From a phage, in assembly GCA_032298335.1 (NCBI GenBank), contig GCA_032298335.1_4702.1: 43,865 nucleotides of DNA. One strand, written 5' to 3'. Below, piece after piece: positions 22,805 through 39,198 of the stretch. The position numbers and the translations under genes are program-made. Positions within the stretch are counted from its first letter, which is position 1. Each line of letters opens with the position of its first letter. Under the pieces are notes generated by a model. It did no database searches, was not told the DNA's origin, and was given only the letters and a program-made list of their open reading frames with translations.

Positions 22805-22825
22805 ATTTACTGGACACTATAGAAG
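22805..22825 (+). promoter_or_regulatory. Phage RNA polymerase promoter upstream of the capsid gene
   Basis: Exact consensus ATTTACTGGACACTATAGAAG. Confidence 0.85.
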
Positions 22826-22875
22826 GGAGAAATGTCTCCCTAAAATATCACTTTGATTTATAAGGAGGTTTATTA

Positions 22876-24084
22876 GTGTCTACGCCGAATAACCTGACCA
22901 ACGTTGCAGTCTCCGCTTCCGGTGAGGTAGACAGCCTTCTCATTGAGAAATTCAATGGTAAGGTAAATGAGCAGTACCTGAAGGGTGAGAACATCATGTC
23001 ATACTTTGATGTTCAGACTGTTACTGGTACTAATACTGTAAGCAACAAATACTTAGGTGAAACAGAGTTGCAGGTTCTGGCACCGGGTCAGTCTCCTGCT
23101 GCAACCTCTACTCAGGCCGATAAAAACCAGCTGGTAATTGATGCCACTGTTATCGCTCGTAACACCGTTGCACACCTGCATGACGTACAGGGTGATATTG
23201 ATAGCCTGAAGCCGAAGCTTGCTACTAACCAAGCGAAGCAGCTGAAGAAGATGGAAGATGAAATGCTGATTCAGCAGATGCTGCTGGGCGGTATTGCTAA
23301 CACTCAGGCTAAGCGCACAAACCCTCGTGTGAAAGGCCACGGCTTCTCTGTCAACGTAGAAGTTGCAGAAAGTGAAGCGCTGGTCAACCCGCAGTATGTA
23401 ATGGCGGCTGTAGAGTTTGCTCTTGAGCAGCAGCTTGAGCAGGAAGTAGACATCTCTGATGTAGCTATCCTGATGCCGTGGCGCTACTTCAACGTACTGC
23501 GTGATGCAGACCGTATCGTTGACAAGAGCTACACCATTAGCCAGTCGGGTGCAACCATTCAGGGTTTTGTTCTGTCTTCTTACAACTGCCCTGTTATCCC
23601 GTCTAACCGCTTCCCTAAATTCTCTGCGGGTCAGAAACATCACCTGCTGTCAAATGAAGACAACGGTTATCGTTATGACTCGACTGCAGAAATGAATGGC
23701 GCTATCGCTGTACTGTTCACAGCTGACGCTCTTCTTGTTGGTCGTTCAATTGATGTAACAGGTGATATCTTCTATGAGAAGAAAGAGAAGACCTATTACA
23801 TTGACACCTTTATGTCTGAAGGTGCAATCCCTGACCGTTGGGAGGCAGTGTCTGTAGTTACCACCAAGCGAGAGACAAGTGGCAAGCCTACCACTCCTGC
23901 AACTCAGGCCGCACAGCACACTCAGGTTCTTAACCGTGCACAGCGCAAAGCTGTATACGTCAAGAATGCTGCCCCGGCAGGTGCCGCTGCCGCTGCTAGC
24001 TTGTCTGCTGAAGACTTGGTTGCTGCTGTTCGTGCTGTAATGGCTAATGACATTAAGCCGACTGCAATGAAAACTACTGAGTAA
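22876..24084 (+). CDS. Major capsid protein
   Basis: 402 aa; GTG start 6 nt after TAAGGAGGT; high-expression codon usage; followed by a strong terminator as for T7 gene 10. Confidence 0.9.
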   Translation: MSTPNNLTNVAVSASGEVDSLLIEKFNGKVNEQYLKGENIMSYFDVQTVTGTNTVSNKYLGETELQVLAPGQSPAATSTQADKNQLVIDATVIARNTVAHLHDVQGDIDSLKPKLATNQAKQLKKMEDEMLIQQMLLGGIANTQAKRTNPRVKGHGFSVNVEVAESEALVNPQYVMAAVEFALEQQLEQEVDISDVAILMPWRYFNVLRDADRIVDKSYTISQSGATIQGFVLSSYNCPVIPSNRFPKFSAGQKHHLLSNEDNGYRYDSTAEMNGAIAVLFTADALLVGRSIDVTGDIFYEKKEKTYYIDTFMSEGAIPDRWEAVSVVTTKRETSGKPTTPATQAAQHTQVLNRAQRKAVYVKNAAPAGAAAAASLSAEDLVAAVRAVMANDIKPTAMKTTE

Positions 24085-35659: not shown

Positions 35660-37557
35660 TGGCTAAGGCAAGAGAATCACAAGCGGAGGCTCTTGCCAGA
35701 TGGGAGATGCTACAGGAGTTACAGCAGACCTTTCCTTTCACAGCGGAAGGTTTGCTTCTCTTTGCAGATACAGTTATTCATAACTTAATTGCAGGCAACC
35801 CTCATCTGATTCGTATGCAGGCGGATATCTTGAAGTTCCTATTTTACGGACACAAGTACCGCCTCATCGAAGCGCCTCGTGGTATCGCTAAGACAACACT
35901 ATCAGCAATCTATACGGTATTCCGTATTATTCATGAACCGCATAAGCGTATCATGGTTGTGTCCCAAAACGCCAAGCGAGCAGAGGAAATCGCAGGTTGG
36001 GTAGTTAAAATCTTCCGTGGCTTAGACTTTCTTGAGTTTATGCTGCCGGATATCTACGCTGGGGACCGTGCATCCGTTAAGGCGTTTGAGATTCATTACA
36101 CCCTACGTGGTAGTGATAAGTCTCCTTCTGTATCCTGTTACTCAATCCAAGCAAGTATGCAGGGTGCTCGTGCTGATATTATTCTAGCGGATGACGTAGA
36201 GTCGATGCAGAATGCTCGTACGGCAGCGGGCCGTGCCTTGCTTGAGGAACTGACTAAGGAGTTTGAATCTATCAACCAGTTTGGGGATATCATTTACCTT
36301 GGTACACCTCAGAACGTAAACTCTATCTACAACAACCTACCTGCTCGTGGTTACTCTGTTCGTATCTGGACTGCGCGTTACCCTTCAGTAGAGCAAGAGC
36401 AATGTTATGGCGACTTCCTTGCACCTATGATTGTGCAGAATATGAAGGACAACCCAGCACTGCGCTCAGGGTACGGGTTGGATGGTAATAGTGGTGCACC
36501 TTGTGCCCCTGAAATGTATGATGATGAAGTCCTGATTGAGAAGGAAATCTCTCAGGGTGCTGCTAAGTTCCAGCTTCAGTTCATGCTTAACACTCGCATG
36601 ATGGATGCTGACAGATACCCATTACGCCTGAACAATCTAATCTTCACCTCGTTTGGTACAGAGGAAGTCCCTGTGATGCCTACGTGGAGTAATGATTCCA
36701 TAAACATCATTGGTGATGCACCTAAGTATGGTAACAAGCCTACGGATTTCATGTACAGACCTGTAGCTCGCCCATACGAATGGGGTACTGTCTCCCGCAA
36801 GATTATGTATATTGACCCTGCGGGTGGCGGTAAGAATGGGGATGAGACGGGTGTGGCTATCGTATTCCTGCACGGCACATTCATTTACGTGTATCAGTGC
36901 TTCGGTGTGCCGGGTGGATACCGCGAATCGTCCCTGAATCGCATTGTGCAGGCCGCAAAGCAGGCGGGTGTTAAAGAGGTATTCATTGAGAAGAACTTTG
37001 GTCATGGCGCGTTTGAGGCGGTAATTAAGCCGTACTTTGAACGAGAGTGGCCTGTAACGCTGGAAGAGGATTACGCCACCGGACAGAAAGAGTTGCGTAT
37101 CATTGAGACGCTGGAGCCGCTCATGGCAGCCCATAGGCTTATCTTCAATGCAGAGATGGTGAAGTCAGACTTTGAGTCGGTACAGCACTATCCGCTTGAA
37201 CTACGCATGTCCTACAGTCTTTTCAATCAAATGTCGAACATAACGATTGAGAAGAACAGCCTCCGGCACGATGACCGCCTAGACGCCCTGTATGGCGCTA
37301 TACGGCAATTAACTTCTCAGATAGACTATGACGAGGTTACACGGATTAATCGCCTCAGAGCGCAGGAGATGCGAGATTACATCCATGCTATGAACACACC
37401 TCATCTACGCAGGGCAATGCTATATGGGGATTACGGTACTGAGCGAAGAGTGACCAACACTTCCGTAGCGATGCAGCAGCGAGTTTACGGGCAGAACTAC
37501 CGAAATAAATCGGCAAGCAGAAATACACTTTCTGCAAGGATTTCAAGGACTTATTAA
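35659..37557 (+). CDS. Terminase large subunit (gp19-like)
   Basis: 632 aa; ATPase N-terminal half and nuclease C-terminal half expected from size and position; ATG overlaps the small-subunit stop. Confidence 0.9.
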   Translation: MAKARESQAEALARWEMLQELQQTFPFTAEGLLLFADTVIHNLIAGNPHLIRMQADILKFLFYGHKYRLIEAPRGIAKTTLSAIYTVFRIIHEPHKRIMVVSQNAKRAEEIAGWVVKIFRGLDFLEFMLPDIYAGDRASVKAFEIHYTLRGSDKSPSVSCYSIQASMQGARADIILADDVESMQNARTAAGRALLEELTKEFESINQFGDIIYLGTPQNVNSIYNNLPARGYSVRIWTARYPSVEQEQCYGDFLAPMIVQNMKDNPALRSGYGLDGNSGAPCAPEMYDDEVLIEKEISQGAAKFQLQFMLNTRMMDADRYPLRLNNLIFTSFGTEEVPVMPTWSNDSINIIGDAPKYGNKPTDFMYRPVARPYEWGTVSRKIMYIDPAGGGKNGDETGVAIVFLHGTFIYVYQCFGVPGGYRESSLNRIVQAAKQAGVKEVFIEKNFGHGAFEAVIKPYFEREWPVTLEEDYATGQKELRIIETLEPLMAAHRLIFNAEMVKSDFESVQHYPLELRMSYSLFNQMSNITIEKNSLRHDDRLDALYGAIRQLTSQIDYDEVTRINRLRAQEMRDYIHAMNTPHLRRAMLYGDYGTERRVTNTSVAMQQRVYGQNYRNKSASRNTLSARISRTY

Positions 37558-37576
37558 TTACTGGACACTATAGAAG
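37556..37576 (+). promoter_or_regulatory. Phage RNA polymerase promoter after the terminase gene
   Basis: AATTACTGGACACTATAGAAG; overlaps the terminase stop. Confidence 0.85.
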
Positions 37577-37649
37577 GAAGGCCCAGATAATAAGAGAAAT
37601 AATAGGTAATATATAGGTTAACCTAGGTTATATAGGTATGCCTTAGTAT

Positions 37650-37669
37650 AGGTGTACTCCTGTACACCT
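37650..37669. repeat. Hairpin-forming inverted repeat AGGTGTAC-TCCT-GTACACCT
   Basis: 8-bp perfect stem with a 4-nt loop in the AT-rich leader after the promoter, followed by a tandem TACCTTAC x2. Confidence 0.7.
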
Positions 37670-37721
37670 TATTCATTACTACCTTACTACCTTACTATAT
37701 TTACATAATAGGAGAGAGACA

Positions 37722-37997
37722 ATGGCTAATGATTATAGTAGTCAACCATTAACAGGTAAGTCTAAGAGAAAGCAGGTACAACCTGTAAGTGAAGAACTAA
37801 TGCTTCCGGTAATCAAAAAAGAGGAAGCTAGTAAGAAAAGCAATGTCATTAATGATGCCACCAAATCAGGTAAACAGAAAGGGGCCATGGTGTGCCTTGA
37901 AGTGGAAGGTGTATTGAAGATTGCTATAGCGGTTGATGGCAAAGAAGATTCAGCGTGGAAGTTAGTAACAAGCGGACCAGCTGTTAACCCAGTTTAA
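37722..37997 (+). CDS. Small protein, paralog A (91 aa)
   Basis: Shares SGKQKGAMV ... IA(I/V)A ... SW core with the next ORF; good ribosome-binding site. Confidence 0.6.
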   Translation: MANDYSSQPLTGKSKRKQVQPVSEELMLPVIKKEEASKKSNVINDATKSGKQKGAMVCLEVEGVLKIAIAVDGKEDSAWKLVTSGPAVNPV

Positions 37998-38015
37998 GAT
38001 AAGGAGGAAGATTAC

Positions 38016-38309
38016 ATGGCTAAATATGGTACTACAGGTTCTGTTACTGGTCAGGCTTTTCGAGTAAAAGCAGTACAAACTATTGCAACGGCAATCCCTG
38101 TGCCTGTTGTTAAAGAAGCAGACCTTAAGAGTAAAGATCACCCTATCAACATCAAACACCTGTCAGGTAAGCAGAAAGGCGCAATGGTTGCTGTTGAGAG
38201 AGATGGCACAATCGTGCATATTGCTGTTGCACGTGGTAGTGAACCAACAGACTCTTGGGATGTAACTGGTATGGAAGAGGCCGCTGTCACTCCAGCAGGT
38301 AGAGATTAA
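38016..38309 (+). CDS. Small protein, paralog B (97 aa)
   Basis: Tandem paralog of 37722-37997; good ribosome-binding site. Confidence 0.6.
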   Translation: MAKYGTTGSVTGQAFRVKAVQTIATAIPVPVVKEADLKSKDHPINIKHLSGKQKGAMVAVERDGTIVHIAVARGSEPTDSWDVTGMEEAAVTPAGRD

Positions 38310-38653
38310 TGCTTAACAAATACTTCAAGCGTAAAGAGTTCGCTTGCCGTTGTGGGTGCGGTACATCCACTGTTGATGCTGAATTACTACAGGTAGTCAC
38401 AGATGTGCGTGAGCACTTTGGTTCTCCTGTAGTTATCACTTCGGGGCACCGCTGTGCTAAGCACAATGCTAATGTAGGAGGAGCTAAGAACTCCATGCAT
38501 CTTACTGGTAAGGCTGCTGACATTAAGGTGTCTGGTGTTGGCCCAATGGAGGTACGTGCATACCTCTGCAATAAATACCATGATAAGTACGGTATTGGTG
38601 CTTATCCTACTTTTACCCATATCGACGTTAGAGATAACAAAGCAAGATGGTAA
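38309..38653 (+). CDS. Endolysin, peptidase M15-type cell-wall peptidase
   Basis: 114 aa; KEFACRCGCG ... SGHRC ... H ... GKAADI ... H pattern typical of zinc D-Ala-D-Ala carboxypeptidase-like phage endolysins. Confidence 0.8.
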   Translation: MLNKYFKRKEFACRCGCGTSTVDAELLQVVTDVREHFGSPVVITSGHRCAKHNANVGGAKNSMHLTGKAADIKVSGVGPMEVRAYLCNKYHDKYGIGAYPTFTHIDVRDNKARW

Positions 38654-38761
38654 GATGCATTGAATGGTGTGAACGCATGGTTGCTAAGGCTTCAGAGGAA
38701 GGTAACTATGAAGATTGGCAGAACTACTCAACTTTATTAGCACAATGGAAAGGGAGGTGCA

Positions 38762-38910
38762 ATGAAAAAGCTGTTCAAATCTAAGAAGGTTGTAGGTGCA
38801 CTAGTTGCATTGGCAATTGCTCTTGTTTCTGTAGGTCTTGGTGTAGACCTTGGCTCTGGCACGGAATCCTCTGTGACAGATGTGGTCTGCCAAGTGATCA
38901 CCTGTGAATA
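38762..38910 (+). CDS. Small membrane protein (49 aa), possible second holin or antiholin
   Basis: GGGAGG ribosome-binding site; basic N-terminus then one hydrophobic helix VVGALVALAIALVSVGLGV. Confidence 0.45.
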
Positions 38911-39125
38911 AGTTTCTAGAAGTTCTGGCAGGTCTTATTGGCCTGCTTGTCTCTGCTAAGAAGAAACAAGAAGAGAAGGAGGCACAAAGTGAAGCGAATC
39001 ATGTTAGTGACAACCCTTCTGATTGGTTCGCTGACCACTTCCGGGTGTCAGCAGGCGTTACCAGAGAAAGCAATGGTGAAACCTCTGAGGCCGACGCTGA
39101 CGGAAGTTTACGAGGTAGACGATAA
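38904..39125 (+). CDS. Inner-membrane spanin-like protein (Rz-like, 73 aa)
   Basis: GTG start; N-terminal transmembrane helix FLEVLAGLIGLLVSA then a charged periplasmic part; overlaps the lipoprotein ORF. Confidence 0.45.
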   Translation: MNKFLEVLAGLIGLLVSAKKKQEEKEAQSEANHVSDNPSDWFADHFRVSAGVTRESNGETSEADADGSLRGRR

Positions 39126-39198
39126 GGTCTGCTTTAGTAAGCCTGACGCTACAAAATTAGGTTTGTATATTCTTTCGCTGGAACGCGGATATAATTAA
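38989..39198 (+). CDS. Outer-membrane lipoprotein spanin (Rz1-like)
   Basis: Signal peptide MKRIMLVTTLLIGSLTTSGC with a lipobox Cys; embedded in and extending past the Rz-like frame; AAGGAGG ribosome-binding site before a GTG start. Confidence 0.6.
   Translation: MKRIMLVTTLLIGSLTTSGCQQALPEKAMVKPLRPTLTEVYEVDDKVCFSKPDATKLGLYILSLERGYN

Follow-up and report, generated by a model that had tools for sequence, protein, structure and literature searches.

Adjacent paralogous genes 41 and 42 of a K1-5-like podophage encode probable trimeric capsid accessory proteins mislabelled as an enzyme

Two small adjacent genes lying between the large terminase and endolysin genes of a K1-5-like podophage encode paralogous proteins, gp41 and gp42, which we consider probable trimeric capsid decoration or cement proteins. 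The stretch of DNA analyzed (hereafter the window, 43.9 kb) is an approximately complete genome of a K1-5/K1E-like podophage (Autographiviridae, Molineuxvirinae, Vectrevirus); across positions 37400-38700, it shares 97% identity with Escherichia phage vB-Eco-KMB14 and 94% with K1-5. In the K1-5 record, both ORFs are present as genes 41 and 42, with the large terminase gene (gene 40) on one side and the M15 peptidase endolysin gene (gene 43) on the other. As genes, gp41 and gp42 are therefore already known, under a wrong label, and their novelty in this respect is modest.

A preliminary description of this DNA had noted two adjacent proteins of roughly 90 aa, and ORFs of this size were confirmed at both positions on the plus strand. 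The gene 41 ortholog (37722..37997; type A paralog, clade A) encodes a protein of 91 aa (9.7 kDa, pI 9.1) with 91% identity to K1-5 gp41, and the gene 42 ortholog (38016..38309; type B paralog, clade B) encodes a protein of 97 aa (10.2 kDa, pI 8.1). Both proteins matched phrog_2725 (gp41, E=3.6e-36; gp42, E=9.6e-44) at profile positions 4-100 of 238. Pairwise alignment by BLASTP gave 47.4 bits with 29/83 identical residues (35%), a significant similarity (E=1e-13); the earlier account of a duplicated gene pair downstream of the terminase, with no function assigned to it, is thus upheld. The common core that had been pointed out, SGKQKGAMV followed by a later tryptophan, is present in both proteins, and its S-G-K...W residues are invariant across 70 diverse family members. 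The N-termini, which had been called divergent, are so only in part, as the alignment begins with residue 1 and TG, R, and P positions are conserved within it. At the nucleotide level, the two genes share 27 of 36 nt at the SGKQKGAMV motif.

Based on an alignment of 16 sequences (A1), which includes orthologs of gp41 and gp42 together with long paralogs, similarity spans almost the full length of the proteins, and residues T11, G12, R16, and P30 are invariant. Among the 70 diverse members, including both window proteins, five residues (N45, S50, G51, K52, W81) are invariant and five more (G12, G55, A72, G74, P93) are conserved in at least 90%. Both proteins carry the family signature, which consists of an N-terminal TG, N, SGK(Q/K)xG, A.G, W, and a C-terminal (V/I)TP; the C-terminus of gp41 reads VNPV, not VTPA. 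Estimates of dN/dS relative to the Proteus phage Premi orthologs ranged from 0.08 to 0.29, which reflects purifying selection, and estimates among close Vectrevirus relatives were mostly 0.35-0.7, with a value of 1.46 for one near-identical pair that has very few substitutions. These values indicate that both frames are real coding sequence and that evolution among close relatives is somewhat relaxed or diversifying. For the gp42 monomer, AF2 predicted that residues 30-85 form a small beta core and that the N-terminus (residues 1-30), although conserved, is disordered.

In RefSeq and PHROGs, these proteins are labelled acetyl-CoA acetyltransferases (thiolases). Thiolases are approximately 390 aa long and have N- and C-terminal domains with a catalytic Cys/His/Cys set. 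At 91 and 97 aa, gp41 and gp42 have about a quarter of this length, and gp42 lacks cysteine altogether. No thiolase match was found in Pfam (E up to 1) or NCBIfam (E up to 0.1), nor did sequence searches of the PDB return one. All that speaks for an enzyme is the label itself, which traces back to a "putative" entry in the 2016 annotation table of UAB_Phi78 and has since spread through the records. We assign the enzyme reading a negligible probability; judged by sequence, the acetyl-CoA acetyltransferase label of phrog_2725 is refuted. Searches for other assignments gave little. Neither gp41 and gp42 nor alignments A1 and A4 found a homolog in sequence and profile searches of the PDB. At E <= 0.001, all matches of a Foldseek search of BFVD were family members; non-family viral proteins occur among the weaker matches. 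Pfam DUF7486 was rejected as a candidate, because gp42 scored 16 bits (E=0.0085) against a gathering threshold of 27 and only 1 of the 70 members matched. PADLOC anti-phage-defence models gave no match to gp41 or gp42 at E up to 0.1, and a search for a published function of gp41-43 of K1-5, K1E, or SP6 found nothing.

The family is widespread and its genomic slot is conserved. Using tblastn, we identified relatives of gp42 in 188 phage records and of gp41 in 143, from podophages of Escherichia, Klebsiella, Salmonella, Proteus, Pectobacterium, Erwinia, Vibrio, Aeromonas, Pseudomonas, and Ralstonia; the 110 orthologs of gp42 lie nearly all on contigs of about 44 kb. The family genes directly follow the T7-type large terminase gene in the window, K1-5, P3a, fTuEco01, Kp7, SP6, PP1, phi-A318, Reminis, and Premi. 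The sole exception among the loci that we opened is Klebsiella phage vB_Kp_Z1, in which the upstream gene encodes an unannotated hypothetical protein.

Within the Molineuxvirinae, the copies separate into three orthologous types in a tree. Type A comprises window gp41, K1-5 41, SP6 42, Kp7 45, PP1 43, and Premi 45; type B comprises window gp42, K1-5 42, SP6 43, Kp7 46, PP1 45, and Premi 46. Type C proteins are longer, with the common N-domain followed by a C-terminal extension (an Ig-like or other display domain). The gp41-type and gp42-type clades stay separate across Vectrevirus, Zindervirus (SP6), Acadevirus, Axomammavirus, and Kp7, which indicates that the duplication is ancient and that the A+B pair has been conserved. 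Type C is represented by proteins of 225 aa in fTuEco01 and Raoultella phage P3a and by the 178-aa Kp7 gp47, which contains an Ig domain; it is absent from the window and from K1-5.

Comparison of the type C loci (L002:2858-3571, L003:2405-3082) with the window showed that the type C gene (~680 bp) is a presence/absence polymorphism in Vectrevirus, located exactly at the junction of gene 42 and the endolysin gene (window position 38309); carriers are fTuEco01, Raoultella P3a, UTI89UKE2/3, KAW1A4500, and Phi100-A. In SP6, the product of gene 44 (L005:2798-3043; 81 aa), a hypothetical protein by annotation, is a truncated remnant of type C that has the TGQRS...SGKREG motif and is missing the C-terminal part of the core. 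A 95-aa protein found on two contigs (P0110; L015:1632-1919, L016:1023-1310) combines a type A N-terminal half with a type B C-terminal half, joined at SGKQKGAMV. This arrangement suggests an A/B recombinant or a deletion that left a single gene; it may also be an assembly chimera, as both contigs end just after the gene.

Evidence for a three-part unit comes from fused relatives. A profile search of 1.84 billion representative proteins identified 270 relatives, and a domain HMM was used to score 156 family proteins, mostly representatives from that search. A single domain was found in 109 proteins, exactly three tandem domains in 38, and two domains in 9, and none had four or more. At 275-288 aa, most proteins with two domains have room for a divergent third copy. 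The two triple-domain genes whose position could be established, P0265 and P0264, each directly follow a T7-type TerL gene, in a slot equal to that of genes 41 and 42. They lie on metagenomic contigs that both encode T7 tail-fibre and packaging domains and one of which (L011) also encodes a T7-type RNA polymerase. Some other triple-domain proteins (P0184, P0196, and P0253) carry one C-terminal extension, an architecture that parallels the split arrangement of A, B, and C-with-extension.

In a further relative, P0239, one N-domain leads directly into approximately 23 G-X-Y collagen triplets. The collagen helix is an obligate trimer of three chains. Together, the three-copy fusions and the collagen fusion point to the module being a trimeric anchoring unit, and from this domain architecture we infer that gp41 and gp42 themselves probably form trimers. 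AF2 modelled the triple-domain P0265 with a pTM of 0.69 and domain cores at pLDDT 80-88; the model suggests that the domains pack confidently against one another, as such a pTM would otherwise be hard to reach. The conserved GDxxRK linker or arm segments of P0265 were predicted to be disordered, and segments that are conserved and disordered alone may become ordered on a partner, for example the capsid surface. Downstream of the triple-domain gene on L011 (L011:8903-9456), a 58-aa ORF starts like the module (MDKRRKAVRPIV...NPIN) and then breaks, and it is followed by a 113-aa ORF; this region may be a fourth copy of the module that is frameshifted or extension-bearing.

A place in the virion is indicated by work on a relative. 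In phage Kp7, gp45, gp46, and gp47 are encoded directly after TerL and before the endolysin, and their annotation reads minor capsid protein. The tree places Kp7_45 with gp41 (46% identity) and Kp7_46 with gp42 (46%), whereas Kp7_47 is of type C. The text of the Kp7 preprint states that SDS-PAGE and mass spectrometry of purified virions revealed all three proteins, which it calls minor capsid proteins and lists apart from the tail proteins gp36, 37, 41, 51, and 52. Mass spectrometry of virions, proposed earlier as a check on the pair, has in effect been done for the relative Kp7, whose proteins are 46% identical, and it points to a structural role. The text of the Premi paper, which covers virion mass spectrometry, does not name the family homologs. 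The Ig domain of Kp7 gp47 also matches two PDB chains named "Decoration protein" (8zvi_a, E=6e-17; 5lxk_A, E=2.8e-16).

The major capsid protein encoded in the window (22876..24084, plus strand; 402 aa) aligns to PDB entry 7y3t with E=2.2e-174, and the 7y3t chain is identical (100%) to the Kp7 capsid protein gp35. We regard this protein as the probable binding partner of gp41 and gp42. In entry 7y3t, 7 chains have the sequence of the capsid protein; the gp41/gp42 family has no matching chain in the PDB. The minor proteins were accordingly not built in that entry, for which low occupancy, disorder, or an off-lattice location are possible reasons, and this speaks mildly against a cement layer that is rigid and fully occupied. 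The 363-aa Kp7 protein in 7y3t aligns to residues 1-363 of the 402-aa window protein, whose last ~40 residues form an Ala-rich tail (...AAPAGAAAAASLSAEDLVAAVRAV...) that has no counterpart in 7y3t.

The same gap in 7y3t would suit a trimeric anchor elsewhere on the particle, on the tail, neck, or adaptor, with gp41 and gp42 as small collar or whisker-base proteins. Such a location fits the fusion of family members to collagen-like stalks and to domains with a tail-fibre label in PHROGs (P0239), and it also fits the BFVD matches of a family domain, some of which carry a tail fibre or SGNH esterase annotation; a trimeric module with collagen or enzyme-like cargo would be equally at home on a tail-attached fibre. 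However, the "tail" labels in PHROGs stem from the collagen repeat and not from the N-domain, cargo-free forms of 90 aa are poorly suited to fibres, and the Kp7 authors place gp45-47 with the minor capsid proteins rather than with the tail proteins. We therefore judge a tail or neck location unlikely, and the capsid, rather than another part of the virion, is the probable place of binding.

The signals upstream of the pair are in keeping with a strongly expressed late unit. The preliminary description had placed a consensus promoter ahead of the two genes, and this promoter is real and can now be typed: an exact 21-mer, TTACTGGACACTATAGAAGGA, lies at 37558..37578 (plus strand), directly after the terminase stop codon, and corresponds to the phage-RNA-polymerase promoter of K1-5/SP6 type. 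A count of TTACTGGACACTATAGAAGGA matches with at most 3 mismatches over the whole window found 8 copies, all on the plus strand, against 0 expected by chance; another copy (22807-22827) lies upstream of the major capsid gene. A sigma-70 promoter was rejected, as the scan stayed at background (4 found, 4.2 expected). The promoter at 37558-37578 drives genes 41-42 and probably the lysis genes as well. Each gene also has the strong ribosome-binding site attributed to it: AGGAG at 37710..37714, 7 nt before the ATG at 37722, and AAGGAGG at 38001..38007, 8 nt before the ATG at 38016, both read directly on the plus strand and both at optimal spacing. This combination of promoter and strong ribosome-binding sites fits what is expected of abundant structural proteins.

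Between the promoter and gene 41, a terminator-like scan, an inverted-repeat search, and RNA folding identified a perfect 8-bp hairpin, AGGTGTAC-TCCT-GTACACCT, at 37650..37669 (plus strand), followed by TATTCATT. This is an odd site for a terminator-like element, and the hairpin may serve in processing or stabilisation, or it may act as a leaky terminator. The leader RNA as a whole (37575-37725) showed no unusual stability (RNA fold z=+1.17). In Vibrio phage phi-A318, the equivalent spacer contains an annotated phage terminator (L007:2905-2950).

Abundance bears on a further alternative, in which gp41 and gp42 are assembly or packaging accessories, or internal proteins, that enter the virion in small amounts and leave its surface undecorated. 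Their genes adjoin the terminase genes, the proteins are mildly basic (pI 8.1-9.1), the Kp7 homologs are called "minor" in the preprint, and none is modelled in 7y3t. Yet the strong promoter and ribosome-binding sites suggest that the products are abundant, the Ig-like domains of type C are homologous to surface decoration proteins, and the collagen stalks of other relatives are features of external display. An internal or packaging role consequently appears quite improbable to us.

The pair had also been placed at the head of the lysis cassette. This stands with regard to position, as gene 42 lies directly upstream of the M15 endolysin gene, its stop codon overlaps the endolysin start (TAATG, a translational overlap), and the promoter is probably common to the holin and spanin genes. 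With regard to function, a role as antiholin, lysis-timing regulator, or endolysin partner is very improbable. Both proteins are hydrophilic, neither has a transmembrane or signal segment (maximum 19-residue Kyte-Doolittle means of 1.47 for gp41 and 1.24 for gp42), and neither matches a lysis PHROG, whereas the downstream ORFs match endolysin, holin, and spanin families. In phi-A318, the single family homolog is separated from the endolysin gene by genes for proteins of 558 aa and 88 aa, a gene order that indicates linkage to TerL and not to lysis; the reported presence of homologs in Kp7 virions also argues against a lysis function.

Two features were observed downstream of the pair. A 45-aa ORF at 38647-38784 overlaps the endolysin gene at its end and is followed by the holin gene; it belongs to a conserved family (phrog_1312, E=4e-18), is unannotated in K1-5, and is present in UAB_Phi78. 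The region 38904-39198 has the look of a spanin pair: a 73-aa ORF corresponds to phrog_9219, and an Rz-like spanin match (phrog_8971; residues 21-86 of the ORF at 38938-39198, with a lipobox-like LTTSGC) is embedded in another frame.

Our preferred reading remains that of trimeric capsid decoration or cement proteins, and a model for it can be proposed. Genes 41 and 42 would encode the type A and type B subunits of a virion accessory family found in SP6-like and some other Autographiviridae. Each subunit would begin with a conserved N-terminal arm that is flexible (M..TG[K/Q/D]..R/K..P-V-V), continue with a small beta core centred on the invariant SGK[Q/K]xGA...A.G....W, and end in a tail with the conserved C-terminal (V/I)TP(A). 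After late transcription from the consensus phage promoter and translation from the strong ribosome-binding sites, three modules may assemble into a trimer, either homomeric or heteromeric, that binds the outer face of the T=7 head. The most likely docking sites are local three-fold positions where capsomers meet, and trimers docked there would act as cement or decoration. Both the three-fold location and a stabilising function of gp41 and gp42 are put forward on the basis of the module's architecture and its relatives, and they should be taken as presumptive. In relatives, a type C paralog or a fused third repeat would bear an Ig-like, beta-sandwich, or collagen-stalked display domain; this phage would have the two bare subunits only. 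With two paralogs rather than one or three, A2B, AB2, or separate homotrimers are all possible.

A more specific extension of this model is tentative, and we hold it to be somewhat doubtful. According to this extension, the ~85-aa module would be a previously undescribed capsid-anchoring trimer fold that occurs as a homotrimer, as a heterotrimer of two or three tandem paralogs (A/B/C), or as a single-chain pseudo-trimer. At most one subunit of a heterotrimer would then carry a display arm, and gp41 and gp42 would be the minimal, cargo-free heteromer. If this were true, Autographiviridae could set exactly one display domain at each three-fold site.

K1-5, K1E, and SP6-like phages are candidates for therapy and models for capsule-targeting podophages, and two of their highly conserved late genes are mislabelled as an enzyme. 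If gp41 and gp42 are virion accessory proteins, the annotation of well over a hundred phage genome records would be corrected, and the family would point to an unsolved decoration or anchor fold and suggest sites for phage display that are natural and dispensable, as Ig, collagen-stalked, and other domains are already found on the module in relatives. The pattern of split and fused forms would also provide a clean natural case for the evolution of hetero-oligomeric capsid accessories. With no solved structure and with split, fused, and collagen-stalked architectures, the family is a reasonable structural target.

Among known systems, the direct orthologs of the pair are K1-5 41/42, K1E 41/42, and SP6 42/43, with 88-92% identity to the K1-5 proteins and 34-52% to those of SP6 and no substantive difference. 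Kp7 gp45/46/47 are true homologs in the same slot between TerL and endolysin; the window differs in having no Ig-bearing type C subunit. Trimeric decoration and head-fibre proteins are small modules that bridge capsomers at three-fold or quasi-three-fold sites, sometimes with a fibre or display domain, and are optional for assembly. By analogy, lambda gpD, phage L Dec, T4 Soc, and the phi29 gp8.5 head fibre may be the nearest functional models for gp41 and gp42, although no relation in sequence or in fold (beta-tulip, OB-fold, or similar) to any of these four was detected. This comparison draws on general background and on a review (PMC7602432).

Within the Autographiviridae, decoration pairs with one bare and one protruding member that clamp capsomers have been described as alpha-claw/alpha-paw in Pectobacterium phage PhiM1 and as gp55/gp54 in the phiKMV-like Ar-KM; a similar pair of bare and protruding proteins, gp47/gp48, has been described in a related Shigella podophage (HRP29/"Buco"). 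The proteins of PhiM1, HRP29/Buco, and Ar-KM are helix-turn-helix homodimers that form four-helix bundles at two-fold or quasi-two-fold axes, whereas the gp41/gp42 family is predicted to be beta-rich and its architecture points to trimers, which would make it an analog and not a homolog of these pairs. PhiM1 and Ar-KM were accordingly rejected as sources of homologs because their proteins are helical dimers, and the decoration proteins of PhiXacm4-11 and Peru-2 were rejected as jelly-roll dimers and Ig pentamers, respectively. With the Ig decoration proteins of the T5 pb10/Hoc-like kind, type C (Kp7 gp47) has only the display domain in common; the anchoring N-domain, which constitutes all of gp41 and gp42, is unrelated to them.
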